From assembly GCF_058153355.1 (NCBI RefSeq), contig NZ_CM177019.1: a stretch of 64,000 bases of DNA, one strand, 5' to 3'. Below, one piece after another: positions 6,117 through 47,180 of the stretch. Numbering within the stretch: the stretch's first letter is position 1; every line of letters begins with the position of its first letter. The translations under genes were made by a program, and so were the position numbers. The notes under the pieces were generated by a model. That model was given only the letters and a program-made list of their open reading frames with translations, was not told where the DNA came from and did no database searches.

Positions 6117-6130
6117 TTTGAGGGAAAACA

Positions 6131-6307
6131 TGTCGGATGCGGCGTAAACGCCTTATCCGACCTACGGTTTGCATCGTTGCAGGCCTGATAAGACGCGGCA
6201 AGCGTCGCATCAGGCAACGGCAGTCGGATGCGGCGCAGGCGCCTTATCTGACCTACGGTTTGTGTCGTGTAGGCCTGATAAGACGCGGCAAGCGTCGCAT
6301 CAGGCAT
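6131..6307. repeat. BIME/REP cluster (several inverted REP units)
   Basis: Repeated gcctgataagacgcg...cgtcgcatcaggc and cggatgcggcg...ccttatccg palindromic units. Confidence 0.85.
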
Positions 6308-6319
6308 TACAAGGTGCTG

Positions 6320-6895: not shown

Positions 6896-6904
6896 GTATT
6901 CTCC

Positions 6905-7495: not shown

Positions 7496-7514
7496 GCTAA
7501 TCCTTAAACCTTAA

Positions 7515-9904: not shown

Positions 9905-9968
9905 AATGTATCCAGTGATATTTTTTTTACGCAATGCTCAATATTAAATCGGCAATACGGACGACACA

Positions 9969-10832: not shown

Positions 10833-10881
10833 TTACTGGCGTCGCAGCAAGAATAGAGCTGCAACGCCTACACCGGACGAT

Positions 10882-11649
10882 TTAACGACGACACATCTCA
10901 TCAATCATGCATGTGAAATAGTTATGCAGCCATAAAAACGAAGCCGGGATAGCGGTAGAGACTTTAGCCGTGAGAAAACGTTCTGTCGCATCCTGCTTTC
11001 CTTCGCCAGTTATCAGTAGCAAAACTTCGCGGGTATTGAGAATATCCTTCAGGCCTAAGGTGATCCCACGAGTCACGGGGCGACCCGCGGTTTTTAGCAT
11101 CTCATGTTGCTGTGTTCTGGCATCAAGTTGACTGATATGGCAGGCCGGTTGCAGGCTTTCTCCCGGTTCGTTCAGCCCAAGATGACCGTTTTTCCCCAAT
11201 CCGAGAACGCATAAATCCAGACCGCCTTTGCGCGCAATCAGGTTCGTTACCCGTTCGCACTCTGTCTCATTTATCTCTTCGGAGCGAAAGCTGATGAGCT
11301 GGTCTTCACGTAGCCCCAGCGGCTGCACGATATGCTGTTGAAGGAAAGTTTCGCAGGTGCCAGGCATCGTTAATGGCAGATCCACCCATTCGTCGAGCTT
11401 CACGAAGGTGAGCTGGCTGACATCAACCTGCTGCTGGTGGATTTTTTCTACCAGATAATGATACGTCAGTAATGGCGTGGCTCCGGTCGCCAGGCAAATC
11501 ACGGCATCCGGTTTGCTACGGATCACGGCCAATAAATATTCGCTGGCACGTTCACTTAACGCCGTATAGTTTTCAACTTGTTGAAGGGTTTGCACAGGAT
11601 GAAATTCCTTTAGTAAAGAGGCACCACCAGACGCAGTGCCTCGTTCCAT
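10882..11649 (-). CDS. agaI: Galactosamine-6-phosphate deaminase/isomerase AgaI (NagB family)
   Basis: 255 aa NagB-like ORF; ATG overlaps agaD stop. Confidence 0.85.
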   Translation of the reverse strand: MERGTASGGASLLKEFHPVQTLQQVENYTALSERASEYLLAVIRSKPDAVICLATGATPLLTYHYLVEKIHQQQVDVSQLTFVKLDEWVDLPLTMPGTCETFLQQHIVQPLGLREDQLISFRSEEINETECERVTNLIARKGGLDLCVLGLGKNGHLGLNEPGESLQPACHISQLDARTQQHEMLKTAGRPVTRGITLGLKDILNTREVLLLITGEGKQDATERFLTAKVSTAIPASFLWLHNYFTCMIDEMCRR

Positions 11650-12441
11650 TTACAAAATGCCGAATGCGGAACAAACAATAGAGAGCACAAAAGTCACGCC
11701 GATTAACAGCACCGGATGCGCTTTTTTCACCCGCAGGAAGTAATACATCAACAGGGTGTAGGCCATCGGTAAAATGTTCGGGAAGACTTTATCGAAGAAA
11801 TCCTGCTGCAGCGCGACGCTGTGGGTACTGTCGATGGCAAACGATGTCACCACGTTAATATGCACATACGAAGCGATCAGCCCGCCGATTACCGTGATCC
11901 CGAGGATGGTTGCCGAACGAGCAATCATCTGCGAGTTCTCTCGCACTTTATCGATCGCCTTCACGCCGACTGAATAACCGACGTGGGTCCAGCCGACGCG
12001 CAGGAAAAAGATAAGCAGGTAAACGGCGAAAAATAGAATCGGCCCCAGCAAGTTTCCCTGGCTGGCAAATGATGAGCAAATTCCCGCCATAATCGGCAAT
12101 AAGGTAAACCAGAAAATCGCATCGCCAATCCCGGCGATTGGGCCAAACAGTGCCACTTTGAGGCCTTTAATGGTGTCGCGGTTTTCTCCTTTTTCTTCCA
12201 TCGAAATTAATAACCCCATCAGGAATCCGACCAGATTCGGGTGGGTATTAATAAATTCGAGGTTATCTTTCATCGCCGCGCTTAGGCCCGGTTTATCGTC
12301 CTTATAAATCTTTTTCAGGATCGGCAACATCGCCCAGGTAAAACCGCCCGCCTGCATCCTTTCGTAGTTAAAGCTTGCTTGTAGCAGTGACGAACGAAAG
12401 CCCAGACGGGTGATATCTTTTTTACTGATTTCAGATCCCAT
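11650..12441 (-). CDS. agaD: PTS galactosamine EIID AgaD
   Basis: ORF 11650-12588; start at MGSEISKKDITRLGF, mannose-family IID. Confidence 0.88.
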   Translation of the reverse strand: MGSEISKKDITRLGFRSSLLQASFNYERMQAGGFTWAMLPILKKIYKDDKPGLSAAMKDNLEFINTHPNLVGFLMGLLISMEEKGENRDTIKGLKVALFGPIAGIGDAIFWFTLLPIMAGICSSFASQGNLLGPILFFAVYLLIFFLRVGWTHVGYSVGVKAIDKVRENSQMIARSATILGITVIGGLIASYVHINVVTSFAIDSTHSVALQQDFFDKVFPNILPMAYTLLMYYFLRVKKAHPVLLIGVTFVLSIVCSAFGIL

Positions 12442-13234
12442 TGCTGTAGTCCTCTTCTTCATTTTTACTGGCAACGGGCTGCGGTTGCGCTTGCTGCCGG
12501 GATTTCGCATTGAAAAACTCATACACCGCAAAGCCTGCGCCCAGTACGGCAACCGGCAACAGGTTGCTGACCTGGATGTAGCAAACAAACAGGAAACCGG
12601 CGATCAGGTAAGGGATATATTGCGCTTTGAACATTACGCGCAGCAGCAAGCCAAAACCAACGGCAGGCAGAATACCGCCAGCCACTTCAAAGCCGTGGGT
12701 CAGCCAGGCGGGCATCGCTTTCACCAGCGCCTGCATCGCCCCTTGCGCCAGGTAAGTACAGAGGAAAGCAATCACCGCATACGCTGAAGCGACGATGAGC
12801 ATCGTTGTCCAGTTAAGTCGGGAAAACGCTGCCGTATCCGCATCTTTCGCGCATTTATCGGCTTTGGTCATAAATAATGAGAAAGCGGAATAGAAGAACA
12901 GAATGACGTACTGCATTAACAAACTAAACGGCAGGCCAAGACCAATTGCCGTTTTGGCATCAACGCCCGTAGACCATGCAATGACGGTGGTCATCAGACC
13001 CGCCATAATCGGGTTGGGCGGCTGAACACCACCTGCAGGGGTTAATCCGGCGAAAGCCAACTCTGTTAGGCCACCGGTAATTAAGCCAGTCTGAATATCA
13101 CCGAGAATAGCACCTGTAAGGGTACAAACGATTATCGGGCGGAATAAAAATAAGGCTTCCAGCCAAAAATCAATCCCCAGAACGAAAACTAACGCCGCCA
13201 GGGATAATCCCTGAATTAGGGTTATTTCATGCAT
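12431..13234 (-). CDS. agaC: PTS galactosamine EIIC AgaC
   Basis: 267 aa mannose-family IIC; 11 nt overlap with agaD. Confidence 0.9.
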   Translation of the reverse strand: MHEITLIQGLSLAALVFVLGIDFWLEALFLFRPIIVCTLTGAILGDIQTGLITGGLTELAFAGLTPAGGVQPPNPIMAGLMTTVIAWSTGVDAKTAIGLGLPFSLLMQYVILFFYSAFSLFMTKADKCAKDADTAAFSRLNWTTMLIVASAYAVIAFLCTYLAQGAMQALVKAMPAWLTHGFEVAGGILPAVGFGLLLRVMFKAQYIPYLIAGFLFVCYIQVSNLLPVAVLGAGFAVYEFFNAKSRQQAQPQPVASKNEEEDYSNGI

Positions 13235-20030: not shown

Positions 20031-21311
20031 TTATTGGCCTTCACAGGCTGTGTGGTACTGCGCCAGGATGTCCTGAATATGGTTGATAATGAGTTCCCGT
20101 GGTGTTGGCTGCAGCTCGCCGGAGCGAACTTTCACGTACTGCAGCGGCAAATACTGGCTGATGAGCGGTAGCGGAATTGGTGCATCCGCCAGATTACGAA
20201 CCAGATGAGCGAAAGCGTCATCAATCTGGCTGTCCGGCCAGTAATAGCGCACGCGATCCGAGTAGCTATAACCACGCGCCAGACGACGCGCGTTGCCGTC
20301 ACCGTGGTAGTGGCTTTGCCAGTATTCCGGGCGGTCGAGCATCACGTTTTCCAGCACCTGACGCAGACCGGAACAGGCTTTCGCTGGCACCAGTTCTTCT
20401 TCAATCGCCGCCAGAGAGAACAGAGCTTCACGCAGGGCGAAGGTCAGCGCCGGACCAACTTTCAGAATGGCAAAGTGGTCAATCACCAGCTGGCGCAGCG
20501 ATTGCGGCGTTTGGTAATCGGTAGAGTGCGCTTCGAAAATCAGCGTTTCGTAGTTTTCGACCATCTGGCTTAAGGCGGTCGCTTTAGCTGGCTGATAATC
20601 AATAACGTTGGTGTGATCGAATTCGACGCCGGGTTGTACCACCAGAGCAATGATGCGTGGCCAGATGGCATTCAGACCTTGCTTTTCAAAGGCGTGACGA
20701 TGGGCTTCCAGCGTGGCGCGGGCGGCATCCGGCGTGGTGACCGCCAGCTCGCTTAAGGTTTCATGCGCGCCGCCAGGTACCGGCACTTCGGTACCAATGA
20801 CATAGACCAGATCGGCTTCGCCAAAGTGTTCACGACAGGTTTCTTCCGCGACTTTAGCCAGTCGGGCGGCGCGTTCAGCCACGATGTCATCGGTTAAGGG
20901 AACCGGATCGTCCTGACAGGACATGCTGCAATCAAGGTGAATTTTTTTGAATCCTGCCGCCACGTAGCTTTTAATCAAATCATCGGCATTGGCCATCGCC
21001 TGAGCTGCAGGCAGGTTTTGCCAGCGGTTTGGCCCCAGATGATCACCACCCAAAATCAACGCATCCTGTGGGAAATTCAATGAGTCGGCGAGCTGACAAA
21101 CAAAGCCGCGAAAATCGGCGGGTGTCATTCCGGTATAACCGCCGAACTGGTCCACCTGATTGGATGTCGCTTCAATCAGTAACGGTGTTTGGTTTGCACT
21201 GGCGTAGCGGATTGCAGCTTCCAGCACCAGCGGGTGTGCGGAACAAACGGCATAAATCCCATTTGTTTTGCCCTTTTTGTGCTGCCTCACCATTTCTGTC
21301 AGATGTTTCAC
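20031..21311 (-). CDS. kbaZ: Tagatose-bisphosphate aldolase subunit KbaZ
   Basis: ORF 20031-21377; probable GTG start giving [15 protein letters not shown]..., ~426 aa. Confidence 0.85.
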
Positions 21312-21559
21312 TTTCCTCTCCAGTTCAGATTGCTGCGATATTAATCTTTCGTTTTGTTTCAGTTGATACTGCGTCATGGTGAGATAAAAATAAAACGAAA
21401 GATAATAGTTTTCTGATCTGATTCACAAAAGAAACATAATGAAAGTCTCTAAAACGAGAGTAGCTTGCGGCTGGGGGCAATGTGGGCTTGCATTTGCTTA
21501 ATAGAAAGGCGTTAATAGGCAAAACGAAATGAAACGAAAGTTTTACGAAAGGACTTACT
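21312..21559. promoter_or_regulatory. Divergent kbaZ / agaR promoter region with AgaR operator-like repeats
   Basis: Complements of aaaataaaacgaaag and gcaaaacgaaatgaaacgaaag give TTTCGTTTYATTTY-type motifs. Confidence 0.6.
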
Positions 21560-22369
21560 ATGAGTAATACCGACGCTTCAGGCGAGAAGCGAGTGACAGG
21601 CACCAGCGAGCGACGAGAACAAATCATTCAGCGCCTGCGACAGCAAGGGAGTGTGCAGGTTAACGATCTGTCGGCATTGTATGGCGTATCTACTGTGACG
21701 ATCCGCAACGATCTGGCGTTTCTGGAAAAGCAGGGGATCGCTGTGCGGGCCTATGGCGGCGCGTTGATCTGCGATAGCACGACGCCGTCAGTCGAGCCAT
21801 CAGTGGAAGATAAAAGCGCGCTGAACACTGCGATGAAATGCAGCGTTGCGAAAGCTGCCGTTGAGTTGATTCAGCCAGGTCATCGGGTGATCCTCGATTC
21901 CGGGACCACCACGTTTGAGATTGCTCGTCTGATGCGCAAGCACACTGACGTAATTGCGATGACCAATGGTATGAACGTAGCCAATGCACTGCTGGAAGCA
22001 GAAGGCGTTGAACTTCTTATGACCGGCGGGCATCTGCGGCGTCAGTCGCAATCTTTTTACGGCGATCAGGCTGAACAATCGCTGCAAAATTACCACTTCG
22101 ATATGCTGTTTCTTGGTGTAGATGCGATCGATCTGGAGCGCGGTGTCAGCACGCATAATGAAGATGAAGCCCGTTTAAACCGTCGGATGTGCGAAGTTGC
22201 GGAACGGATCATCGTGGTCACCGATTCCAGTAAGTTCAACCGTTCCAGTTTACATAAGATCATTGATACTCAACGTATCGACATGATCATTGTTGATGAA
22301 GGCATTCCTGCGGATAGTCTGGAAGGACTGCGAAAGGCTGGGGTTGAAGTGATTCTGGTCGGGGAGTGA
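21560..22369 (+). CDS. agaR: DeoR-family repressor AgaR
   Basis: 269 aa, N-terminal HTH plus DeoR C-terminal sugar-binding domain. Confidence 0.9.
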
Positions 22370-22901
22370 GAAATGGTGCCCGTAGCTCAACACGGATGTG
22401 TTCGGCGGGCATTGTTCACTGTCCTTTTACAGCCTGTTTTCTGCTCAAATTAGAAGCTTCAGCAAAGGTAATGCAAATGCATTATTAACAGCAGAAAGCG
22501 CCAGAACCAACGAAAAAAGAGAGCATGTTTCCCATTTTGCGAGGCGCTTTCCAAATCACCCGCTCAGTCCCCTCGCGTTGCAGTGCTAAAAGCACTATTT
22601 TGCAAATTTGTGACCTTCTTCACTCTCCCAAAAGGCGGTGATCTCACGGTGGGGATCCACTTTCTGCTTTCGCTTTTCTGCCGTTAGCACTCGCTATTTC
22701 GGCATCTCTTCTTTTCACTTTTTCAGTTTGTCATTTTCATTTGCGGTCAACCGAAAGTTCTGGAGTCGATTTTTCCAGGTTTCAACGCCGTTGTCGCGTT
22801 CACAAATTCACTTCTTTTCTTCTGATGTAATGCATTCAAAAGAAAATGAAAGCTGCAAAATGCAAGAATGCAACTAAATACTTTTTCAGGGAGCGATAAA
22901 C

Positions 22902-23672
22902 ATGCTAGATAGCCTAAGACGCCGCGAACAAATCATTGATTTGTTATGTGCCCAGGGAAGCGTACGCGTTGAGCCGCTCAGCATCCATTTTGGTGTCTCA
23001 TCGGTCACGATCCGCAATGACTTACGGTATCTGGAGCAAAAAGGTTGCGTCATGCGTTCCTATGGCGGTGCCGTGTTGAATCAACACTTTGCGCTCGACA
23101 GACCCTTGCAGGATAAAGATCGCCTTAATCGTGATGTTAAAGTGCGAATTGCCGAAAAAGCGGCCAGTTTTGTCAAAGATGGCGATACATTAATTATCGA
23201 TTCTGGTTCAACGACCACGCTAATTCCCGCTTCGCTCAAAGGGCGTCGGGATTTAGTCGTCATGACGAATGCCTTGAATATCGCCTGGGAAATGGCCAGT
23301 TTTGAACGGGTGGATGTTATGATCCTTGGTGGAAATGTTCGCCAGAGCGTCTACTCCCTGTATGGGCCTTCGGCAGAACAACAACTCCGGCAGTATCGCT
23401 TTGATAAGCTGTTTCTGGGCGTGGACGGCTTTTGCCTTGAAGCAGGGATTACCACGCCACATCCGGGTGAGGCACATCTGAACCAGGTGATGTGCCAGGT
23501 TGCGCAGGAAATTACTGTTGTCGCGGACTCCAGTAAATTTGGCCGCAAAAGCTTCTGTATGATCGGTGAAGTGAGCGAGATAGATCGACTGATTACCGAT
23601 AGCGGTATTCCGGAGAATTACAAAGCAGCATTAACGCAAATGGGTGTGGAAGTTGTGATTGCTGATGAGTGA
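22902..23672 (+). CDS. DeoR-family transcriptional regulator, AgaR paralogue (accessory)
   Basis: 256 aa; N-terminus RREQIIDLLCAQGSVRVEPLSIHFGVSSVTIRNDLRYLEQKG parallels AgaR; good RBS (GGGAG). Confidence 0.85.
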   Translation: MLDSLRRREQIIDLLCAQGSVRVEPLSIHFGVSSVTIRNDLRYLEQKGCVMRSYGGAVLNQHFALDRPLQDKDRLNRDVKVRIAEKAASFVKDGDTLIIDSGSTTTLIPASLKGRRDLVVMTNALNIAWEMASFERVDVMILGGNVRQSVYSLYGPSAEQQLRQYRFDKLFLGVDGFCLEAGITTPHPGEAHLNQVMCQVAQEITVVADSSKFGRKSFCMIGEVSEIDRLITDSGIPENYKAALTQMGVEVVIADE

Positions 23673-23676
23673 GAAA

Positions 23677-23708
23677 ATGTGGCTGGAGATAAACGTCGCC
23701 AGCCACAT
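23677..23708. terminator. Hairpin between convergent DeoR regulator and ROK kinase genes
   Basis: tgtggctgg...ccagccaca inverted repeat. Confidence 0.4.
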
Positions 23709-23716
23709 TACGTTAT

Positions 23717-24628
23717 TCAGGTTGCATGTTCGATTTGCAGCAACGCCGCGCCTCGTACACCGCTCGTTGCTCCGTGAATGGCAGAAAATACGCGCGCAGG
23801 TTCCAGTCCAGGAAGAAGATAACGCGTCATAGCTTTCGGCAATAACGTGTAAATTTCTTTGAAGTTAGACACACCGCCGCCAAGAACAAATGCATCTACG
23901 TCGAGAATATGCTGCAACTGTGCCAGCGTACAACCAACCATATCTATCCAGGCGCTAATGGTGGTGATGGCACTGGGAACGCCACGTTGATGATTTTCTA
24001 ACAATGTCTCCATAGTGATTTGCTCATCGCTGAAATGCTTATGTAACCAGAGCAAGCCAGGACCGGACTGGTAGCGTTCCAGGCACCCTTGCAAACCGCA
24101 GCCGCATTGTAATTCAGGCAGGTTATAGCGCCGCGTAAATGTCGCCGGGAGCGGTAAATGGCCAAACTCGCAGGCCATACGGTTACGGCCACGGTACAAC
24201 TGGCCATCAATAACTAATCCCCCGCCCATACCCGTGCCGATAATCGCGCCAAAGATCCGACTATATTGACGAGCTTGATCGGTATGCGCTTCTGATAGGG
24301 CGAAGCAGCAGCAGTCATTATCCATTATTACCGGGCGGTTAAGGCGATTTGCCAGATCGGTTAACACCTGGCGTCCGGTCAGGCAGGGAACGTTAGAAGA
24401 CAACAGTTTACCGGTGTGCCGATCCATAACGCCGGGCATCCCGATACCTATTTTGCCTTGCGTACCCGTGGCCCAGTCAGCGGTATCAATCAGAGACACA
24501 AATGTGGATAGAAAAAGCGCGTAATCCTGAACAGGCGTAGCTACCCGCTTGCGCCAGCAAATTTGTAAATCCTGATCAAAGGCGACTATCTCTGTTTTGG
24601 TTCCACCAATATCAACACCGTAAAACAT
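23717..24628 (-). CDS. ROK-family sugar kinase, NagK-like
   Basis: 303 aa; DIGGTK N-terminus and CGCG..C zinc motif as in N-acetylglucosamine kinase. Confidence 0.85.
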   Translation of the reverse strand: MFYGVDIGGTKTEIVAFDQDLQICWRKRVATPVQDYALFLSTFVSLIDTADWATGTQGKIGIGMPGVMDRHTGKLLSSNVPCLTGRQVLTDLANRLNRPVIMDNDCCCFALSEAHTDQARQYSRIFGAIIGTGMGGGLVIDGQLYRGRNRMACEFGHLPLPATFTRRYNLPELQCGCGLQGCLERYQSGPGLLWLHKHFSDEQITMETLLENHQRGVPSAITTISAWIDMVGCTLAQLQHILDVDAFVLGGGVSNFKEIYTLLPKAMTRYLLPGLEPARVFSAIHGATSGVRGAALLQIEHAT

Positions 24629-24646
24629 CGCTCATCTCCTTTGGTT

Positions 24647-25903
24647 TCACAGCACAACCAGGGTATTTTCCTTGCGAGCGCGTTCGGCGGCAAAGACCAT
24701 TAAATGACTTTCGAGCGATTCATCTGGTCCTGAAAGGATCATCGCTCGATCGTCAGCCATCACGGCATGGATAAAGCTGTCCATCAGATAGTAATCACCA
24801 CCACCGTGCCCTCCCATTTGGGTGTGAGTGCCTGCGTTTTTCTCTTCAACGGTGTAAATAGTTTCCTGGTCGGTGAGAAAATCAAAACACCGAATGGTGT
24901 TGCCATCGCCTTCCAGATAACCTTTCGAACCGAAAACTCGGGTTTTGCGATCCTCCATTTTCGTAAAGGCTGTCATTGTAAAAGTGACGCTCTGCTGATG
25001 CGCAAACTGCATGTTTACCACTTGATGATCAACAACATCGTTATCGCAGCAATAAACACAGCGACCATAGGGGCCGTCACGCAGGGCCTGACGAATATTC
25101 TCTTCAGTAGGATTTGGTGTTAACACGTGGCGAAAGTGAAACGTACATTTATGGGCTTCGCCAGCATAAATTTTGCATGCGGACCACGGGCAGGTCGCTT
25201 CTGCCTGGCAATCGAGACAGCGTTCGGCTGCGCCTTCAGGTTGGTTTTGTTTTACAAAATGGTTGAGCCCGCCAAATGAGCTAACGGTTTTACAGTTGTC
25301 TCCCATGATGTAGCGGATCCAGTCCAGATCGTGGCAGGACTTTTGTAACAACATAAATGATGATTCAGCCTCGTTGCGCCAGTTACCACGCACAAAAGAG
25401 TGTGCCTGGTGCCAGTAACCGACGGGTTCGAGATGCTGCATACTGATAATGTCGCCAATGATGCCGCTATCGAGTAAGAATTTGAGTTTTTGTGTATATC
25501 GGGTGTAACGAAGAACGTGTGCGACGGCTAATAAGACATTATTGCGTTTGACGGCATCAATGATAATGCGGCAATCGTGCTCTGTTGGCGCGAGCGGTTT
25601 TTCCAACAGAATGTGGTAACCGAGATCGGCAAAAGCGACGGCCGGATCTCTATGCATATTGTCTTGCGTACAAATAAGTACAGCATCAGCCATTTTTGGC
25701 CGAGCAGCAGCCTCTTTCCAGTTGCTAAAAATATTATCTGTCGGGATCGTATGCCGGGACACAACTTGCTCGCGGTAAGCCTCTCTAGGTTCAGCAACAC
25801 CTACCACTTGCATTCTGTCCGGATGCTCAAGGGCATAGCGGGAATATATTTCTCCACGTGCGCCTGCACCTATTACTAAAACAGTGACTTTATTTTTACT
25901 CAT
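24647..25903 (-). CDS. Gfo/Idh/MocA-family NAD(P)-dependent oxidoreductase with Cys-rich insert
   Basis: 418 aa; Rossmann N-terminus (VLVIGAGARG), EKP motif, Cys cluster CLDCQAEATCPWSACK...CVYCC. Confidence 0.8.
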   Translation of the reverse strand: MSKNKVTVLVIGAGARGEIYSRYALEHPDRMQVVGVAEPREAYREQVVSRHTIPTDNIFSNWKEAAARPKMADAVLICTQDNMHRDPAVAFADLGYHILLEKPLAPTEHDCRIIIDAVKRNNVLLAVAHVLRYTRYTQKLKFLLDSGIIGDIISMQHLEPVGYWHQAHSFVRGNWRNEAESSFMLLQKSCHDLDWIRYIMGDNCKTVSSFGGLNHFVKQNQPEGAAERCLDCQAEATCPWSACKIYAGEAHKCTFHFRHVLTPNPTEENIRQALRDGPYGRCVYCCDNDVVDHQVVNMQFAHQQSVTFTMTAFTKMEDRKTRVFGSKGYLEGDGNTIRCFDFLTDQETIYTVEEKNAGTHTQMGGHGGGDYYLMDSFIHAVMADDRAMILSGPDESLESHLMVFAAERARKENTLVVL

Positions 25904-25945
25904 ATAAAGAAATACCTTTCTGATAAATTCATCTTAATTGCTACG

Positions 25946-26704
25946 TTATAAATTACGAAAACTAACAAGATGAAATCCGTGTTTTTCAATCGCATATTTG
26001 AGTGACGGTGTAGTCAGAACCGTAAGTTCTTCCAGCCGTTGATAGCAGTAACTGCTCGACATTAAGTGGTTATCTACGAATCCAGGGTGACACATAATTT
26101 CCAGCGATTTTTCATCACGTTTTATGGCGCTATCGAGGAGTGATAAAAAAAAGTCTTCTGAAATATTATTATCGTAGAAATTACTGCTGAATCCCTCACT
26201 ACTTTTGGCATCCAGCGAATCGATTTTTTTCTCTCGCAGAACAGAATGGTCTATACGTAATGGTAAATTTTTCTCACGCGCGAACCGCGCGACAACGGGA
26301 TAAACCTGCGGGATCATATGAACGCTGTGATGGCTGTCTAAATGGGTGGGCTCCCGTTTAAATACATCAATAAAACGTTGATATTGAGAACTCAGTTCCT
26401 GTTCAATTTCACCCGTGTTTAATTGCCCTTGCTCCGCGACATCCCAGATCCATTTACCTAATTGGCCTGCGCGTACCAGCGAAGGCATATCCGTTAAGGC
26501 GGCGCCATAGCTCAAAACAAAATGTAACCCGACGCCGAGCTGTGGGGTTTCGGCACTTAAAGAGGCAGCATGATCAATTGCCGGAGCATTCATCATCGCA
26601 GTTGTTGAGCGAACGACACCATTTCGTACTGCCTCGATAATTCCATAATTAATACCTTTACTTAGTCCAAAGTCATCCGCATTCACAATTAATAAGCGTT
26701 GCAT
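25946..26704 (-). CDS. YdjC-family carbohydrate deacetylase (ChbG-like)
   Basis: 252 aa; NADDFG and HLDSHHxVH motifs. Confidence 0.85.
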   Translation of the reverse strand: MQRLLIVNADDFGLSKGINYGIIEAVRNGVVRSTTAMMNAPAIDHAASLSAETPQLGVGLHFVLSYGAALTDMPSLVRAGQLGKWIWDVAEQGQLNTGEIEQELSSQYQRFIDVFKREPTHLDSHHSVHMIPQVYPVVARFAREKNLPLRIDHSVLREKKIDSLDAKSSEGFSSNFYDNNISEDFFLSLLDSAIKRDEKSLEIMCHPGFVDNHLMSSSYCYQRLEELTVLTTPSLKYAIEKHGFHLVSFRNL

Positions 26705-26716
26705 AAGGCGTCCTTG

Positions 26717-28069
26717 TTATTGATGAGATTGGGTAAGTTCAGCAATGGTGCTGGAAAATTGAGGCAGATGTTTTTTATGGGCAATGATCAGTTCACGTAC
26801 TAATTTTTCAGCGTCGTTATCCGAGGTCATTAGCGGGTTAAGGCACAGAGCCAGCAGCGTATCGTTATAGTTACCACTTATTGCCGCCCGGGCTGCCGCA
26901 ATCTCAAAACATTTGATTGAATGAATGAGCCCCAGTACATTTTCGTCAAAATGAGTGAGACGCGGGTGGGGGGTAACACCGTTATTCCCCAGAATGCAGG
27001 TCATTTCAACGGTCCAGTCTTCAGGGATATTTTTTACACTGCCCTTGTGTGGAATATTAACGTAGTGTTCTGTTTGCGTGTCATTATAAATTGCATTAAT
27101 AACGGCACAGGCTGCATCTGAATAATACGCACCACCACGCAGATCCAGTTCTTCAGGTTTTGTATTTAGTTCTGGGTTCTTATACAGCTCAAATAATTTT
27201 CTCTCTAATGCCTGCACGACTTGTGCACGAACGCCATTTTTATAAAATTCCCCCATCTCAATAGCGAGCATTTCTTTATGTTTAAAATAGTAACGTAAGT
27301 AAGCACAGGGCAGGAGATTAAGTGCCCGAATTAAATTAGGATTGAAGGTTAAACTGTCAATATTTTTGACGGTACTTCCTTCAAGCAAACCTTCAACGAC
27401 GCCATCGAGCAATTCAGCAAAACGTGATTGTCCATTGACCCATACGTCTTTAAGAAAGACCATATGATTTAAGCCAAATATGTCTATTGAAAGATCATCG
27501 TCCGCGCCAAGTTTTAGGGCATTGCGAACGAAGCTCTTCATCCCAATAGGGACATTACAGACACCGATAAACCGTTTAAATTGGGTATGGCGGTACACGG
27601 CTTCAGTAACCATCCCGGCAGGATTGGTAAAATTAATAATCCAGGCATCAGGGCAAAGTTCCTCAACATCTTTGATAATATCAAAAACTACTGGAATGGT
27701 TCGTAACCCGTTGAATAAACCGCCCGCGCCATTGGTTTCTTGCCCGAGATATCCCTGACTTAGTGGAATCAACTCATCCATTTCCCGAGCTTTTAATTGC
27801 CCGACCCGAAATTGTGTGGTGACAAAGTGCGCGCCCTGTAATGCAGCGCGACGGTCAAGTGTTTTCACTATTTTTAACGGAATGCCAGCTTTTATCACCA
27901 TCCGCTGACAAAGGTCGAAAATAATGTCCAGCTTTTCTTTGCCTTCTTCAATATCAACTAACCATAATTCACTGACCGGTAATTCATCGTAGCGTTTTAT
28001 GAATCCTTCAAGGAGTTCTGGTGTATAGCTACTGCCACCGCCAATAGTAACGATTTTTAAGTTTTTCAT
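26717..28069 (-). CDS. Glycoside hydrolase family 4 6-phospho-beta-glucosidase (ChbF-like)
   Basis: 450 aa; strong similarity to ChbF by recall (IGGGSSYTPELLEGFIKRY, NFTNPAGMVTEA). Confidence 0.9.
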   Translation of the reverse strand: MKNLKIVTIGGGSSYTPELLEGFIKRYDELPVSELWLVDIEEGKEKLDIIFDLCQRMVIKAGIPLKIVKTLDRRAALQGAHFVTTQFRVGQLKAREMDELIPLSQGYLGQETNGAGGLFNGLRTIPVVFDIIKDVEELCPDAWIINFTNPAGMVTEAVYRHTQFKRFIGVCNVPIGMKSFVRNALKLGADDDLSIDIFGLNHMVFLKDVWVNGQSRFAELLDGVVEGLLEGSTVKNIDSLTFNPNLIRALNLLPCAYLRYYFKHKEMLAIEMGEFYKNGVRAQVVQALERKLFELYKNPELNTKPEELDLRGGAYYSDAACAVINAIYNDTQTEHYVNIPHKGSVKNIPEDWTVEMTCILGNNGVTPHPRLTHFDENVLGLIHSIKCFEIAAARAAISGNYNDTLLALCLNPLMTSDNDAEKLVRELIIAHKKHLPQFSSTIAELTQSHQ

Positions 28070-28145
28070 GTTACTTCCATACTCAATATTAAATTGACTT
28101 GTGATGCCATGGTTTATCTAAACGCTGGCATGATGAAGCGTGCTA

Positions 28146-29506
28146 TTAAAACTTTAATGCATTGGCAATGTCTTCTTCGCTTTCTTGTTTAATTATTTCA
28201 ACTTGTGCTTTGTTTGAGATAATGACAAAGGGAAGATAAACCATTGTGGCAACACCTAAGTTAAAGAGCGCCAGGAGTAATCCAGCAATGCTTCCATTCG
28301 AGCTAAAGAACGCATTGAGTCCAGGAGGCATGGTCCAGGGGGCAATATTTGTTGATGGCGGAATAATACCCATGTTATAGGCGATTAAGGTAATCCCGGC
28401 GAGAATGGGTTGAATCATCACAAACGGGATTAACATAATGGGGTTCATAATGATCGGCAAACCAAATAAAATAGGTTCGTTGATATTAAAGATACCAGAA
28501 GGTAACGCTAATTTAGCAACCTGACGATAATCTTCCCGGCGTGACGCAATGAAAATGGCGAAAATGAGTCCCAGCGTTGCCCCTGTTCCACCGAGGAACA
28601 CGTAAGCGTCAAGCATTGGCCCGGTCCAGAAATGGAAGGTTTTTCCTGCTTCCAGTGCCGCTTGTACTGAACCATATTGTGTATAGGTGGCGATATTCTC
28701 CAGTCCCCACGGACCCAACGTGCTGCTTTGCAACGCGGTTAATACTAAGCCGCCGTGGATACCAAAGAACCATAACAGGGAATTAAAGACAACGAATGTC
28801 CAGCCAACAATACCGCTCATTGACGTTAATGGCGTAGCCAGTGAGGTGATAATGACCTGATGGAAATTGGTGCCATATATCGACAATATCCCAGACAAAC
28901 TACCCATAATTAACAGGATGATAAACCCGGGCACCATTGCTGAGAATGAGCGTGATACTGCGGCCGGAACACTCGCGGGCAACCGAATCACCCAGTTGCG
29001 GCGGATAATAAAAGCGAAAATTTCCGCTACAACTAATCCAATGATCATACCAGACAGAATATTGGCGCCGCCTAACCAGTTTGCACCAATGACATTAGCG
29101 GTTTCTCCTGCCTTGAAGGGGGTGACAGTCATAAACGCTGCGACAGAGAGTAAGCCAACGGATAACGAATCAACTTTCCGTTCTTCGGCCAACCCCATCC
29201 CAATAAAAAAGGGGGTCATGAGTGACATAATGCCCAGCGTGCCATGATAAGCACTGTCACCGACGACGGTGAAGGCGCTTAAGGTTTTTATGGTCGATGG
29301 TTCCAGTCGGACGCCTAATGAATAAAAAAGGAGCCTTCGCCAAAATCTAAAAAAACGCTATTAATGAGGACAAATAACGTACCGGCTAACGTTAATGGCA
29401 TCATACGGATAAAACCGTTTTTTATTGCATTGACGTGAGGTTGTTTCCCTAATTTAACTGCAAAAGGAAGAATGAGTTTTTCAAGTAACGCCATCACTCC
29501 GGGCAT
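28146..29506 (-). pseudogene. PTS lactose/cellobiose-family EIIC (ChbC-like) split by a frameshift
   Basis: N-terminal 63 aa (29506-29315, ...[12 protein letters not shown]) and C-terminal 360 aa (from 29228) are in different frames; the second frame reads FYSLGVRLE... upstream to the junction. Confidence 0.75.
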
Positions 29507-29575
29507 AAAAATATCCTTATATACCGATTAATGTATCACTGCGACTTTGGTTTTATTAATATCCTGTTGCTATGG

Positions 29576-29893
29576 TTACTTTTGCTCTTTTTTTATTATG
29601 GCGATAGCTGATTTTAGAACACCTAAGCCATCAATTTTTCCATATAACATTGAATCAATAACTTCCACTGGCTTTCCTGGTAATAAGCTTTGGATCTCTG
29701 ATTGCATGTAAGCAATTTGAGGTCCCAATAATATAACATCGGCTTCCGGCCCTTTCTCTGCGGCAACAGATTCGGAGAATGCTTCGATAATTACTGGCAC
29801 ATCATATTTTATCGCCTGCACTTTCATTTTTGACACCAGCAGTGATGTTGACATTCCCGCTGAACAAAATAAGTATATTTTTTTCTTTTCCAT
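29576..29893 (-). CDS. PTS lactose/cellobiose-family EIIB (ChbB-like)
   Basis: ORF 29576-30109; start at [20 protein letters not shown] (phospho-Cys motif), ~105 aa. Confidence 0.85.
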
Positions 29894-30278
29894 AGGGACT
29901 CCAGATATATTACGTAATAATATATTTGTCATGCCATGAATGGCATATGAGGCGACTTTAATTAAAAAGGCACGGATGTTTATATTGATTTCCTGAATGT
30001 CGTCTTTTGGTATTAATCTCAAAAATTTCAGGAGCCATTGAATAATCTGGTTTATAGGATTGAATGTCAAGAGAGTGAAATTGTGGGCGTGTTGTAATAA
30101 AAATAGCACGGCTTTCGGTAGGTTTCTTTTTTAGCGGAATGAAAAGTACAGGCAAAATGGTAATTGAATAAATTAACGTTTTTTCAATAGATTACGTTTT
30201 TTCCTGCCTACAGGAATGAAAAAAACAACAATCTAAAAATACTTTAGATATGTGAGAGTTATCACTTACTTTTCGTGG

Positions 30279-30311
30279 GGAAAACGGGGAAACACAGTCT
30301 CCCCGTTTTCC
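30279..30311 (-). terminator. Stem-loop immediately downstream of garD
   Basis: ggaaaacgggga / tccccgttttcc perfect 12 bp inverted repeat. Confidence 0.4.
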
Positions 30312-30326
30312 GTTCATGCAAGGCCG

Positions 30327-31898
30327 TCAAGTCACCGGTGCCGGGTTAAACACCGCCAGTTGGTTATGCAGCCCCCATTGATCCGAGAAGGTTTTCTTCT
30401 TCCCGCTGGCGACGTCGAGAATAAAGTGGAACAGCTTCCAGCCCACTTCTTCTATGGTTTCTTCGCCGGTGGCGATGGTGCCTGCGTTGATATCCATTAA
30501 GTCAAACCAACGGTTTGCCAGTTCGGTGCGGGTTGCCATTTTAATGACGGGTACCGCCATCAGGCCGTACGGCGTACCACGGCCGGTCGTAAACACTTGC
30601 ACGGTGATACCCGAAGCCACCTGTTGCGTGCCACAGACAAAATCGCTGGCTGGCGTCGCGGCGTAAATTAATCCGCGTTTAGTCGGGCGTTGACCGGGCG
30701 ATAGCACTTCAACAATTGCGCTTTTACCCGATTTAGCAATGGAGCCGAGAGCCTTCTCCACTACGTTTGCCAGACCGCCTTTCTTGTTGCCCGGAGAAGG
30801 GTTGGCGCTGCGGTCGGTTTTTCCCATATTGAGATAGTTATCGTACCACTCCATCTCTTCCAGCAGACGCTTGCCGACCTCTTCGTTCACTGCGCGCGGC
30901 GTCAGCAGATGGATCGCGTCACGCACTTCTGTGACTTCTGAAAACATCACCGTTGCGCCGCAGCGCACCAGTAGATCAGACGCATACCCAACCGCCGGGT
31001 TTGCCGTTACGCCAGAAAACGCATCGCTGCCACCGCATTGCATGCCGACAACCAGTTCTGAAGCCGGACAGGTTTCTCGCTGACGTTGATTCAGTTTTTG
31101 TAGATGGCGTTCGGCGACCTGCAAAATATCCTCGACCATGGACTGAAAACCGACATGCTTTTCATCCTGCAAACTGACAATGCTGGCGCTTTCTACTGGA
31201 ATAGCTTGCACATCATCCGTTCCAGTCAGCAGGCGCTCAGGCTGCAACTTTTCACAACCCAGACCAATCACCATTACTTCGCCGCCAAAGTTAGGGTTCA
31301 GCGAAATATTGTGAATGGTACGGATAGGCACAACTGCCGCCGGTGCGTTAATCGCCACGCCACAACCGTACAAATGATTCAGCCCCACCACGCCATCGAC
31401 GTTCGGGTATTTCGGTAGCAGATCGCGTTCAATGATTTTTACTACGTAGTCCACCACGCCTGCCACACAGTGGACGCTGGTGGTGATGCCGAGCAGGTTT
31501 TTGGTGCCCACGCTGCCATCAGCATTGCGATAGCCCTCAAAGGTGTATCCTTCCAGCGGCGGTAAGGGTTCCGGGACTTTGGTTGCCAGTGGCAGCGTGT
31601 GTAACGGCGGCGCTTCCGGTAGTACAACCATTGATTCGTCGATCCAGCTTCCGCGTGGGATTGCGCGCACGGCGTAACCAATCACTTCGCCATAACGAAT
31701 AATTTCACCATTAGCCGGAATGTCCAGCAATGCGACTTTATGCCCCTGGGGAATATGTTCAATTAATTCCAGCCCATCCGGAAAACGCGTTCCTGCTTTC
31801 AGGCCATTATCATTAACAATAATTGCCACATTATCTGTGTCGTGAACTTTTATATAAAACGCAGTTGGCGTTTCTTGTCTGATTTCGATGTTGGCCAT
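30327..31898 (-). CDS. garD: Galactarate dehydratase GarD
   Basis: 523 aa, SAF + D-galactarate dehydratase domains. Confidence 0.9.
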
Positions 31899-32273
31899 TG
31901 TGCAATATTCTCCAGCCAGGGGTTATTAAAATGAGGACCTGGTCTCATTTAAAAAATAAATGACTTCATTGGGTGAAATAAGAATGTCAGGAGTTTAAAC
32001 GCAGAAATGTGATCAATGTCAATCATTTCAGGGATTGCAGTGCCGCCCGGCAAGGTAAAGCGCAAATCTGTGCTTTAGCGCGCAACCTTATGTGCATATG
32101 CTCAAAATAATATTTAAATAGTAATAATTAAATTAGCATTTGCACAATGATTATTATTCTCTCGCTGCTTATACTAATTCCTGAGTTCATTGTCGTAACG
32201 GCATAAATAAAACTCATAAATAACACCTTCCCCATAATAATAAAAATCAGCATAAGTACCCGAGGTAAATAAA

Positions 32274-33608
32274 ATGATTCTGGACACCGTTGACGTAAAA
32301 AAGAAAGGCGTGCATACCCGCTATTTAATATTACTGATTATTTTTATTGTTACCGCCGTTAACTACGCCGATCGTGCAACGCTGTCTATTGCTGGTACCG
32401 AAGTGGCAAAAGAGTTGCAGTTAAGTGCGGTTTCGATGGGTTACATCTTTTCTGCTTTTGGCTGGGCCTACTTGCTGATGCAAATTCCCGGCGGCTGGCT
32501 GCTTGATAAGTTTGGCTCGAAAAAAGTTTACACCTACAGCCTCTTTTTCTGGTCGCTATTCACCTTCCTGCAAGGCTTTGTTGATATGTTCCCGCTGGCC
32601 TGGGCAGGGATCTCCATGTTCTTTATGCGCTTTATGCTCGGCTTCTCGGAAGCGCCATCATTCCCGGCGAACGCCCGTATTGTCGCCGCCTGGTTCCCGA
32701 CGAAAGAACGTGGTACTGCCTCCGCCATCTTTAACTCGGCGCAATATTTCTCGCTGGCGCTCTTTTCGCCTCTGCTTGGCTGGCTGACTTTCGCCTGGGG
32801 ATGGGAGCACGTCTTTACCGTTATGGGGGTGATTGGTTTTGTGCTGACGGCGCTGTGGATCAAGTTGATTCATAACCCGACAGATCACCCACGTATGTCT
32901 GCGGAAGAGCTGAAGTTTATATCTGAAAATGGCGCGGTGGTCGATATGGACCACAAAAAGCTGGGCAGTGCGGCAGCAAGCGGTCCCAAACTGCATTACA
33001 TCAAGCAATTGCTTTCTAACCGCATGATGCTGGGCGTATTTTTCGGACAATATTTTATCAACACCATCACCTGGTTCTTCCTCACCTGGTTCCCGATTTA
33101 TCTGGTGCAGGAAAAAGGCATGTCGATTCTGAAAGTGGGTCTGGTCGCCTCGATTCCGGCACTGTGTGGTTTTGCGGGCGGCGTGCTCGGTGGTGTCTTC
33201 TCGGATTATCTGATCAAACGCGGTTTGTCCCTGACCCTGGCACGTAAGTTACCGATTGTGCTGGGAATGTTGCTGGCTTCCACCATCATCTTATGTAACT
33301 ACACCAATAACACCACGCTGGTGGTCATGCTGATGGCGCTGGCCTTCTTTGGCAAAGGATTTGGCGCGCTGGGCTGGCCGGTGATTTCTGACACCGCGCC
33401 GAAAGAGATTGTTGGCCTCTGCGGCGGCGTCTTTAACGTCTTTGGAAATGTTGCCTCCATTGTCACTCCACTGGTGATTGGCTACCTGGTAAGTGAACTG
33501 CACTCCTTCAATGCAGCACTGGTTTTCGTGGGATGTTCAGCGCTGATGGCGATGGTCTGCTACCTCTTCGTAGTTGGCGACATTAAACGTATGGAATTGC
33601 AGAAATAA
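32274..33608 (+). CDS. garP: MFS galactarate/glucarate transporter GarP
   Basis: 444 aa, 12-TM MFS; divergent from garD. Confidence 0.9.
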   Translation: MILDTVDVKKKGVHTRYLILLIIFIVTAVNYADRATLSIAGTEVAKELQLSAVSMGYIFSAFGWAYLLMQIPGGWLLDKFGSKKVYTYSLFFWSLFTFLQGFVDMFPLAWAGISMFFMRFMLGFSEAPSFPANARIVAAWFPTKERGTASAIFNSAQYFSLALFSPLLGWLTFAWGWEHVFTVMGVIGFVLTALWIKLIHNPTDHPRMSAEELKFISENGAVVDMDHKKLGSAAASGPKLHYIKQLLSNRMMLGVFFGQYFINTITWFFLTWFPIYLVQEKGMSILKVGLVASIPALCGFAGGVLGGVFSDYLIKRGLSLTLARKLPIVLGMLLASTIILCNYTNNTTLVVMLMALAFFGKGFGALGWPVISDTAPKEIVGLCGGVFNVFGNVASIVTPLVIGYLVSELHSFNAALVFVGCSALMAMVCYLFVVGDIKRMELQK

Positions 33609-33623
33609 GCAAAGGTATAAGCG

Positions 33624-34394
33624 ATGAATAACGATGTTTTCCCGAATAAATTCAAAGCAGCACTGGCTGCGAAACAGGTACAAATTGGTTGCTGGTCAGC
33701 ACTCTCTAACCCGATTAGCACTGAAGTTCTTGGTTTGGCTGGGTTTGACTGGCTGGTGCTGGATGGCGAACATGCGCCAAACGATATCTCCACGTTTATT
33801 CCGCAGTTAATGGCCCTGAAAGGCAGCGCCAGCGCGCCAGTAGTGCGAGTGCCGACCAACGAGCCGGTAATTATAAAGCGTCTTCTGGATATCGGTTTCT
33901 ATAACTTCCTGATTCCTTTTGTAGAAACAAAAGAGGAAGCAGAGCAGGCGGTGGCATCAACCCGTTACCCACCGGAAGGCATTCGCGGCGTCTCCGTTTC
34001 TCACCGCGCCAACATGTTTGGCACCGTGGCGGATTATTTCGCTCAGTCGAACAAGAACATCACCATTCTGGTCCAGATAGAAAGTCAGCAGGGCGTAGAT
34101 AACGTCGATGCCATTGCCGCTACCGAAGGTGTAGACGGTATCTTCGTCGGCCCCAGCGATCTGGCTGCGGCATTAGGCCATCTCGGCAATGCCTCGCACC
34201 CGGATGTACAAAAAGCAATCCAGCATATTTTTAACCGTGCCAGTGCGCACGGCAAACCCAGCGGTATCCTCGCGCCGGTCGAAGCCGATGCGCGTCGTTA
34301 TCTGGAATGGGGCGCGACGTTTGTGGCTGTCGGCAGCGATCTCGGCGTCTTCCGCTCTGCCACTCAGAAACTGGCTGATACCTTTAAAAAATAA
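33624..34394 (+). CDS. garL: 5-keto-4-deoxy-D-glucarate aldolase GarL
   Basis: 256 aa HpcH/HpaI aldolase family. Confidence 0.9.
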
Positions 34395-34429
34395 CCACCA
34401 CCGCAACAAGAGAGATGATTGATATGACT

Positions 34430-35314
34430 ATGAAAGTTGGTTTTATTGGCCTGGGGATTATGGGTAAACCAATGAGTAAAAACCTTCTGAAAGCAGGTTA
34501 CTCGCTGGTGGTTGCTGACCGTAACCCAGAAGCTATTGCTGACGTGATTGCTGCAGGTGCAGAAACAGCTTCTACGGCTAAAGCGATCGCTGAACAGTGC
34601 GACGTCATCATAACCATGCTGCCAAACTCCCCTCATGTGAAAGAGGTGGCGCTGGGTGAGAATGGCATTATTGAAGGCGCGAAGCCAGGTACGGTATTGA
34701 TCGATATGAGTTCTATTGCACCGCTGGCAAGCCGTGAAATAAGCGAAGCGCTGAAAGCGAAAGGCATTGATATGCTGGACGCCCCGGTGAGCGGCGGTGA
34801 ACCGAAAGCCATCGACGGTACGCTGTCAGTGATGGTGGGCGGCGACAAGGCTATTTTCGACAAATACTATGATTTGATGAAAGCGATGGCGGGTTCCGTG
34901 GTGCATACCGGGGAAATCGGTGCAGGTAACGTCACCAAACTGGCAAATCAGGTCATTGTGGCGCTGAATATTGCCGCGATGTCAGAAGCGTTAACGCTGG
35001 CAACCAAAGCGGGCGTTAACCCGGATCTGGTGTATCAGGCAATTCGCGGTGGACTGGCGGGCAGTACCGTGCTGGATGCCAAAGCGCCGATGGTGATGGA
35101 CCGCAACTTCAAGCCGGGCTTCCGTATTGATCTGCATATTAAGGATCTGGCAAATGCGCTGGATACTTCCCACGGCGTCGGCGCGCAACTGCCGCTCACA
35201 GCTGCGGTTATGGAGATGATGCAGGCACTGCGTGCCGATGGTTTAGGAACGGCGGATCATAGCGCCCTGGCGTGCTACTACGAAAAACTGGCGAAAGTCG
35301 AAGTTACTCGCTAA
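34430..35314 (+). CDS. garR: Tartronate semialdehyde reductase GarR
   Basis: ORF 34415-35314; start at MKVGFIGLGIMG. Confidence 0.88.
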   Translation: MKVGFIGLGIMGKPMSKNLLKAGYSLVVADRNPEAIADVIAAGAETASTAKAIAEQCDVIITMLPNSPHVKEVALGENGIIEGAKPGTVLIDMSSIAPLASREISEALKAKGIDMLDAPVSGGEPKAIDGTLSVMVGGDKAIFDKYYDLMKAMAGSVVHTGEIGAGNVTKLANQVIVALNIAAMSEALTLATKAGVNPDLVYQAIRGGLAGSTVLDAKAPMVMDRNFKPGFRIDLHIKDLANALDTSHGVGAQLPLTAAVMEMMQALRADGLGTADHSALACYYEKLAKVEVTR

Positions 35315-35410
35315 TGACGTCGTGCCCGGATGGCGTATTGCAATCCGGGCCTGGAATCCAGGCCGAATAAGAGAAACGCCCTCCGGCGTCATGTGGTAAC
35401 AGGCATAGGT

Positions 35411-36556
35411 ATGAAAATCGTAATCGCCCCAGACTCTTATAAAGAAAGTTTATCTGCCAGCGAGGTTGCGCAGGCGATAGAAAAAGGATTTCGGGAAATT
35501 TTTCCTGATGCACAGTATGTTTCCGTTCCGGTTGCCGACGGTGGTGAAGGAACGGTGGAAGCCATGATTGCAGCCACCCAGGGGGCTGAACGTCACGCCT
35601 GGGTTACAGGGCCGCTGGGCGAGAAAGTGAATGCCAGTTGGGGGATCTCCGGCGATGGCAAAACCGCGTTTATCGAAATGGCGGCGGCCAGTGGGCTGGA
35701 ACTGGTACCTGCGGAAAAACGCGATCCACTTGTGACCACTTCACGCGGTACTGGCGAGTTAATCCTGCAGGCGCTGGAGAGCGGCGCGACAAACATTATT
35801 ATCGGCATTGGCGGCAGCGCCACCAACGACGGCGGCGCAGGCATGGTGCAGGCGCTGGGGGCGAAATTATGCGATGCCAACGGCAATGAAATTGGTTTTG
35901 GCGGCGGTAGCCTTAATACTCTGAATGATATTGATATTTCCGGCCTCGATCCGCGCTTAAAAGATTGTGCTATTCGCGTCGCTTGTGATGTCACCAATCC
36001 GCTGGTGGGCGATAACGGCGCATCGCGCATCTTTGGCCCACAAAAGGGAGCCAGTGAAGCGATGATTGTCGAGCTGGACAATAACCTCTCTCACTATGCC
36101 GATGTCATTAAAAAAGCGCTGCATGTTGATGTGAAAGATGTCCCCGGCGCAGGAGCTGCGGGCGGTATGGGCGCGGCGCTGATGGCGTTTCTTGGTGCGG
36201 AACTGAAAAGTGGTATTGAAATCGTCACGACGGCGCTGAATCTGGAGGAACATATTCACGATTGTACGCTGGTGATCACCGGTGAAGGGCGTATTGACAG
36301 CCAGAGTATACACGGCAAGGTTCCGATTGGCGTCGCAAACGTGGCGAAAAAGTACCATAAACCGGTGATTGGCATTGCGGGTAGCCTGACCAATGATGTT
36401 GGCGTTGTACATCAGCATGGCATTGATGCGGTCTTCAGCGTATTGACCAGTATTGGTACGTTGGACGAAGCATTCCGCGGGGCTTATGACAATATTTACC
36501 GTGCTTCACGTAATATCGCCGCGACACTGGCGATTGGAATGCGCAACGCGGGGTGA
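35411..36556 (+). CDS. garK: Glycerate 2-kinase GarK
   Basis: ORF 35330-36556; start at MKIVIAPDSYKESL. Confidence 0.88.
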   Translation: MKIVIAPDSYKESLSASEVAQAIEKGFREIFPDAQYVSVPVADGGEGTVEAMIAATQGAERHAWVTGPLGEKVNASWGISGDGKTAFIEMAAASGLELVPAEKRDPLVTTSRGTGELILQALESGATNIIIGIGGSATNDGGAGMVQALGAKLCDANGNEIGFGGGSLNTLNDIDISGLDPRLKDCAIRVACDVTNPLVGDNGASRIFGPQKGASEAMIVELDNNLSHYADVIKKALHVDVKDVPGAGAAGGMGAALMAFLGAELKSGIEIVTTALNLEEHIHDCTLVITGEGRIDSQSIHGKVPIGVANVAKKYHKPVIGIAGSLTNDVGVVHQHGIDAVFSVLTSIGTLDEAFRGAYDNIYRASRNIAATLAIGMRNAG

Positions 36557-36588
36557 CAAGGGCGCGCAAACCCTCTATACTGCGCGCC

Positions 36589-36965
<377 letters not shown>

Positions 36966-36974
36966 ATTTTAACG

Positions 36975-37010
36975 AAAACCCGCCAGCGTAAACTGGCGGG
37001 TTTTTGCTTT
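36975..37010 (+). terminator. Rho-independent terminator of rnpB
   Basis: cccgccagcgtaaactggcggg hairpin followed by TTTTTGCTTTT. Confidence 0.85.
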
Positions 37011-46712: not shown

Positions 46713-47102
46713 ATGAAAAAGATTATCGAAACGCAACGTGCCCCAGGCGCAATCGGCCCTTATGTTCAGGGTGTTGATTTAGGCAGCATGGTCTTCACCT
46801 CCGGGCAAATTCCGGTTTGCCCGCAGACAGGTGAGATCCCGGCTGATGTGCAAGATCAGGCGCGTTTAAGCCTCGAAAACGTCAAAGCGATCGTGGTTGC
46901 TGCCGGGCTGAGCGTGGGTGATATCATCAAGATGACCGTGTTCATCACCGATCTGAATGATTTTGCCACCATCAATGAAGTCTATAAGCAGTTCTTCGAT
47001 GAGCATCAGGCGACCTACCCGACCCGGAGCTGTGTGCAGGTCGCGCGTTTGCCGAAAGATGTGAAGCTGGAAATTGAAGCCATCGCAGTACGTAGTGCGT
47101 AA
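46713..47102 (+). CDS. tdcF: RidA-family enamine/imine deaminase TdcF
   Basis: ORF 46650-47102; start at MKKIIETQRAPGAIGPY. Confidence 0.9.
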   Translation: MKKIIETQRAPGAIGPYVQGVDLGSMVFTSGQIPVCPQTGEIPADVQDQARLSLENVKAIVVAAGLSVGDIIKMTVFITDLNDFATINEVYKQFFDEHQATYPTRSCVQVARLPKDVKLEIEAIAVRSA

Positions 47103-47180
47103 AGCCTAAAGCCTCGTGAGCGGGACGGTCGCAAGGTCGTTCCGCTCCACTTCACTGAACGGCAATCCGAGGGTGTGGAT

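Follow-up and report, generated by a model that had tools for sequence, protein, structure and literature searches.

How a PTS can take up its sugar when its operon encodes a IIB and a IIC component and no IIA is the question raised by a small island in the E. coli chromosome. The window (the whole 64-kb stretch of DNA that was analysed) runs from the aga genes through the gar genes to the tdc genes, and the island, approximately 7.8 kb long, is inserted between agaR (21560-22369) and garD (30327-31898). Its G+C content is below that of its surroundings (0.40-0.45 across 26-30 kb). A literature search on this island gave nothing usable. In this study, we consider it rather probable that the island is a chbB-chbC-chbF-chbG cassette combined with a Gfo/Idh/MocA oxidoreductase, a ROK kinase and an AgaR-like repressor, that it is expressed from its own promoter and fed by ChbA in intact alleles, and that the allele in the window carries a genuine frameshift. 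The features of the island are listed in Table 1.

Table 1. Features of the island in the window, with the range of dN/dS and dS among three alleles
Feature	Position	Strand	Length	Remarks	dN/dS	dS
PTS IIB, ChbB paralogue, intact	29576-29893	-	105 aa	Pfam PF02302, E 4e-14	0.02-0.09	0.04-0.65
PTS IIC, ChbC paralogue, frameshifted pseudogene in the window	28146-29506	-	453 aa when intact		0.015-0.03	0.20-0.30
IIC N-terminal ORF	29315-29506	-	63 codons			
IIC C-terminal ORF	28146-29228	-	360 aa	Lacks the first 93 residues		
IIC-GH4 spacer	28070-28145	-	76 bp	Place of chbA and chbR in canonical chb operons		
GH4 6-phospho-β-glucosidase, ChbF paralogue	26717-28069	-	450 aa	Pfam PF02056 and PF11975	0.045-0.07	
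YdjC/ChbG-like deacetylase	25946-26704	-	252 aa	Pfam PF04794; NCBIfam NF002559, 350 > 227	0.12-0.16	
Gfo/Idh/MocA oxidoreductase, conserved Cys cluster	24647-25903	-	418 aa	Pfam	0.085-0.10	
ROK sugar kinase, NagK-like	23717-24628	-	303 aa	Pfam PF00480	0.08-0.14	
DeoR-family repressor, convergent with the operon	22902-23672	+	256 aa	Pfam	0.04-0.09	
Best sigma-70-like promoter match in the island (10 of 12), upstream of IIB	30042-30070	-		TTGACA-17-GATTAT		
Conserved block, candidate DeoR/AgaR-type operator	30112-30144	-		TTTC...GAAACCTACCGAAAG; invariant columns in the PTS and ABC versions		

The proteins of K-12 chbBCARFG were compared with the window by tblastn. The amino acid identities were 79% for ChbB, 72-80% for ChbC, 74.5% for ChbF and 57% for ChbG, and no match to ChbA or ChbR was found in the window. 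The island IIB is of the lactose/cellobiose/chitobiose type (TC 4.A.3) and scored above the NCBIfam cut-off for ChbB equivalogs (NF007796, 189.8 versus 157), and the intact 453-aa IIC homologues of three complete genomes exceeded that for ChbC (800.6 versus 760). Based on these identities and equivalog scores, we concluded that, in its PTS part, the island carries a chb paralogue of which only chbB-chbC-chbF-chbG is left. Remnants of chbA and chbR were sought in the short spacer between IIC and GH4, and none were found there. The nearest relatives of the IIC outside the island cluster, from Superficieibacter and Salmonella, are only 77% identical to it, and these relatives, together with a 479-aa variant from E. 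coli, lie in canonical chb operons with a IIA and an AraC-type regulator.

Compared with E. coli chbBCARFG, the island keeps the gene order IIB-IIC-...-GH4-deacetylase, and its IIB, IIC and ChbG-like proteins all pass the NCBIfam equivalog cut-offs. In contrast, chbA and chbR are missing, a Gfo/Idh/MocA oxidoreductase and a ROK kinase have been added, and the regulator is of the DeoR/AgaR-like type rather than the AraC type. The island repressor is an AgaR equivalog by NCBIfam (NF040755, 365 > 260), and the ROK kinase falls under the cut-off for the NagK-type equivalog (NF009835, 306.9 < 380). The two loci also differ in position, the island lying at agaR-garD and chb at osmE-katE, in their unrelated upstream regions, and in the frameshift that the IIC carries in the window. 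PTS permeases without a IIA of their own are common, and the sharing of IIA components is well known. What is new here is a chb paralogue that lacks chbA and chbR and has gained enzymes and another type of regulator. The system itself is of a known kind, and the current understanding of the PTS is not overturned by the findings on this island.

The earlier note on this DNA had claimed that the island encodes only IIB and IIC and no IIA, and it had allowed for a small IIA ORF that was missed. No such ORF was found by tblastn, by a Pfam scan of the ORFs or by a ChbA profile. K-12 ChbA, as a query for a IIA of the lactose/cellobiose type, had no tblastn match at E<=10 in the whole 64-kb window. 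The 59 unannotated ORFs between 22370 and 30330 (stop to stop, >=45 aa) contained neither PF02255 nor any other IIA family at E<=1, and ChbA as the positive control scored 3e-32 in the same scan. A ChbA profile run with the filters off (--max) against every ORF of >=30 aa in 53 loci gave only chance matches (E>2) in all copies of the island, and real matches were found only in canonical chb loci. According to the annotation of the homologous stretch in strain R32_14_1F, the sole IIA of the window is AgaF of the aga cluster, which belongs to the mannose family and thus to another PTS family than the island IIB and IIC. The absence of a IIA therefore stood and the IIB is intact, but the claim did not hold for the IIC, which is frameshifted in the window. 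The segment given in the note (28146-29893) takes in the IIB together with this broken IIC.

The IIC of the window differs from that of the three complete genomes with a 453-aa IIC by a one-base deletion, which shortens a run of seven T to six (29324-29329, minus strand); the run of seven is also present in K-12 chbC. As a result of this deletion, the reading frame meets a premature TAG at 29315-29317 and ends after 63 codons (...GEGSFFIH). In tblastn, ChbC matched in two frames, with residues 1-61 in one and 62-452 in the other, and the remaining 360-aa ORF spans positions 58-317 of the 319 in the Pfam model. A full-length IIC permease (PF02378, about 450 aa) is encoded in the three complete genomes and not in the window. 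Because the IIC is a frameshifted pseudogene, transport via the island PTS is probably nil in the strain of the window; the transporter is probably inactive, or at best very leaky. Annotations should list the IIC of this strain as a pseudogene and should not present the 360-aa ORF as a working permease.

A change of this kind could also be an error of assembly or homopolymer sequencing, in which case the IIB and IIC of the strain would be as intact as in the three complete genomes. The change is indeed the loss of one base within a homopolymer, another such loss lies 1.2 kb away (~28112), and cyuP in the window is likewise frameshifted. However, the run of six is also seen in a Logan assembly (run SRR28786219) that matches the window at 99.995% identity across 21 kb. 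In addition, the NCBI proteins identical to those of the window are EGO8351122 (IIB) followed by EGO8351123 (GH4), with no IIC protein annotated between them, and an allele of 93.5% identity, present in other runs, has undergone this slip as well. The independent Logan assembly and the consecutive NCBI accessions that skip the IIC indicate that the frameshift is genuine. An assembly artefact was rejected as its source on these two grounds, and we regard a sequencing error as highly improbable. Compared with all three complete genomes, the loss at ~28112 shortens a run of four T to three in the IIC-GH4 spacer, and the independent Logan contig has it too.

Most carrier contigs encode the full 453-aa IIC. 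The divergent allele mentioned above, found in runs SRR26188678 and SRR26188679, has the same change from seven T to six in an IIC that is 93.5% identical. Because its flanking polymorphisms differ within 12 nt of the tract, this is most simply explained by an independent slip. In assembly GCA_030511265.1 and two other samples, the IIC is interrupted by IS1. Disruption of the IIC has thus occurred at least three times among carriers, twice by the loss of a T and once by IS1, and such repeated loss could mean that the system is often dispensable. We had also considered that disruptions are enriched in the IIC, and this claim was dropped since the cases came from searches that used the IIC and are biased for that reason. 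The other genes of the island are mostly full length in their clusters, which is not a fair test of enrichment in the IIC.

Because one tract slipped independently in two alleles, we asked whether the two tract lengths might form a reversible switch, with the window captured in the OFF phase, either by slipped-strand phase variation or by low-level -1 slippage in translation or transcription. On the run of six, a -1 slip in the P site would be expected to regain exactly the SFFY frame. Nevertheless, core chbC has a run of seven T too, and we know of no phase variation in core chbC; seven bases is also short for a contingency locus. We consider a switch very unlikely, and the loss of a base in the window is treated here as a genuine frameshift.

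Without a IIA in cis, it could be argued that the island PTS is a relic that was never functional in Escherichia and that its IIC losses are neutral decay. Selection on the island genes bears on this point. The dN/dS ratios were calculated by the Nei-Gojobori method for three alleles, namely those of R32_14_1F, GF4-3 and SRR26188679, the last after repair of its frameshift. The dS ranged from 0.04 to 0.68 over all island genes, and the strongest constraint in the island was found in the two PTS genes, IIB and IIC. This strong purifying selection suggests that the IIA-less system has been functional, a reading that applies to alleles other than the frameshifted one of the window. The absence of a IIA and the three independent disruptions of the IIC are what a relic would lead one to expect. 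However, a system that never functioned for want of a IIA is hard to reconcile with dN/dS values of 0.015-0.09 for IIC and IIB, the tightest in the island, at substantial dS. The majority of carrier contigs also keep the full-length IIC, and the frameshifted divergent allele still has a dN/dS of 0.03, which indicates that its loss of the IIC was recent. Altogether, we find it extremely unlikely that the system was never functional; on the substitution pattern, a functional history is favored, which implies that the frameshifts are probably recent. The dS of a single pair of alleles also differed several-fold between genes (R32_14_1F versus GF4-3: 0.65 for IIB and 0.13 for GH4), and this spread suggests recombination among island alleles.

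If intact alleles function and no IIA lies in cis, a Lac-family IIA must act in trans. The gene chbA was found in 5394 of the 5426 complete E. coli genomes (99.4%). A chimeric query, made of the island Gfo gene and K-12 chbA, matched two separate places in each complete carrier of the island; therefore, all three of them also have chbA. In R32_14_1F, the osmE-chbBCARFG-katE locus is complete and encodes a ChbA of 116 aa. From residue 6 to residue 23, a segment containing the Cys10 phosphorylation loop (CSAGMSTS in the island IIB), the island IIB does not differ from ChbB. Over its whole length it can be aligned with the ChbB chains of the ChbA-ChbB complexes 2WWV and 2WY2 and was also aligned to 1H9C, and its Cys10 loop is the same as that in the ChbB structures 1H9C and 2WWV. 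A literature search on the interface of the ChbA-ChbB complex gave nothing usable. In view of the chbA genes of the carriers and the identity of the IIB to ChbB around Cys10, we believe that ChbA is the most likely donor, and that intact island alleles most likely borrow it; for the strain of the window, the matter is moot.

The donor in intact carriers might instead be an accessory Lac-family IIA encoded elsewhere, or a IIA or HPr acting across families. The check for chbA covered three loci by DNA similarity, and a blastn search would miss divergent IIA(Lac) paralogues; the regulation of the island also appears independent of chb. Against this, a second IIA(Lac) was present in none of the loci examined, and the IIB and ChbB agree in 79% of their residues and throughout the active-site region. 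To our knowledge, ChbA is the sole Lac-family IIA of K-12, and transfer from a IIA to a IIB of another family is not the rule. We therefore consider another donor unlikely, and ChbA is retained as the probable source of phosphate for intact alleles.

A IIA shared between systems has well-known precedents. The Glc-family IIBC proteins PtsG, TreB and AscF of E. coli use IIA-Glc (Crr). Studies have shown that in E. faecalis one Lac-family EIIA, the CelA1 hub, serves several EIIB/EIIC pairs (PMC11976118). A pneumococcal survey found that EIIA-devoid PTSs exist and are sometimes cross-activated in trans (PMC3302838). Like the E. faecalis CelA1 system and the Glc-family IIBC proteins, the island has an EIIB and EIIC without a IIA in cis and would receive its IIA from another operon. 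It differs from them in that its presumed donor is encoded by a core operon that is paralogous and separately regulated, and its dependence on that donor is deduced from the genes. If ChbA does serve a second IIB/IIC, enterobacteria would offer a clear case in which a core operon and a horizontally assembled operon share a Lac-family IIA as their hub, and such a hub would constrain when the accessory pathway runs.

The earlier note had also proposed that borrowing ChbA implies regulatory coupling with the chb system. The chb promoter region is controlled by NagC, ChbR and CRP. We had considered whether this promoter was carried over into the island, and this was rejected, because the region upstream of the island operon had no significant similarity to the regions upstream of chbB in K-12 and Superficieibacter. 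Control of the PTS genes presumably rests with the AgaR-like repressor of the island and not with ChbR or NagC. Coupling may thus be argued only in a narrower sense: if ChbA is the donor, its supply is under separate control, and this could limit the function of the island PTS. The PTS-specific leader also contains a palindrome, ATGCCA-TTCA-TGGCAT (29931-29946), some 40 nt before the start of the IIB gene, and divergent alleles keep it with one change in the loop.

A search with the Gfo protein gave 37 related loci. A version of the island with an ABC transporter, at about 5700-13000 of the respective loci, occupies the garD-agaR site in Citrobacter werkmanii, in two further Citrobacter strains and in Escherichia sp. 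MOD1-EC7003. These islands share with that of the window the chromosomal site, the Gfo (82-84% amino acid identity), the ROK kinase, the DeoR-family repressor and the promoter/operator block. They differ in having a CUT1-type ABC transporter (a substrate-binding protein, two permeases and an ATPase) in place of IIB-IIC-GH4-ChbG, and they have no glycosidase or deacetylase. The upstream block common to the PTS and ABC versions consists of TTTC...AAAGAAACCTACCGAAAG followed by TTGACA-17-GATTAT. The shared regulatory block and the differing transport genes indicate that the island is a mosaic with an exchanged transport module, and we believe that it documents a modular replacement of an ABC transporter by a PTS behind a fixed regulatory region. 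On this basis, a more specific course of events may be offered tentatively, although we think that it is rather doubtful as a whole: an ABC importer of the Citrobacter kind was swapped in Escherichia for chbBC-FG without the IIA and the regulator, so that the PTS would need both the island inducer and core ChbA, as a two-input gate, and would be under strong purifying selection, yet repeatedly turned off by slippage in the run of seven T or by IS1.

The following pathway for intact alleles was deduced from the known chb pathway. The IIC would import a β-linked, probably N-acetylated disaccharide. This would be phosphorylated by IIB~P through a relay of EI, HPr and a Lac-family IIA in trans, most likely core ChbA. 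The ChbG-like and GH4 enzymes would then deacetylate and cleave the product, and the free sugar released would pass to the oxidoreductase and the ROK kinase. The ABC version may import this same sugar directly.

A substrate could not be assigned through the oxidoreductase, for which a PDB sequence search, an AF2 model (pLDDT 86) and Foldseek gave generic, about equally good and non-discriminating matches. The top Foldseek matches, at 13-18% identity, were YjhC, RgNanOx, NAD-dependent glycosidases and levoglucosan dehydrogenase. Enzymes opening anhydro-sugars or cleaving glycosides by means of transient NAD oxidation are among the closest structures. Within the Gfo family, C229, C232, C238 and C282 are invariant and C286 is nearly so, and the motifs CTQDNMH and GHGGGD are found across Enterobacterales, Vibrio, Lentisphaerae and Paenibacillus.

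The island is rare in E. coli. In a megablast search with 21000-37000 of the window, only three of the 5426 complete E. coli genomes contained the full stretch with the island, namely R32_14_1F (goat, CP074749), EC42405 (bovine, CP043414) and GF4-3 (guinea fowl, CP053258), and the flanks matched in all genomes. In most E. coli, the slot between agaR and garD is occupied by the prlF-yhaV toxin-antitoxin pair. This pair is absent from the window (22370-22901) and from two of the three complete carriers. In GF4-3, prlF-yhaV is retained adjoining the island (2425-3224 of its locus), and yhaV is annotated as a pseudogene there.

Two further differences from R32_14_1F were observed in the window beyond the island. 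A 7-bp tandem duplication (TAAAGCC TAAAGCC) lies at the end of tdcF (~47094-47107). The amino-acid permease gene cyuP (yhaO, 48820-50152) is split into ORFs of 287 aa and 177 aa by a frameshift near 49645, caused by a one-base insertion (CTTTATTC versus CTTTTTC), and cyuP of R32_14_1F is intact. Besides the IIC, cyuP is the second pseudogene of the window.
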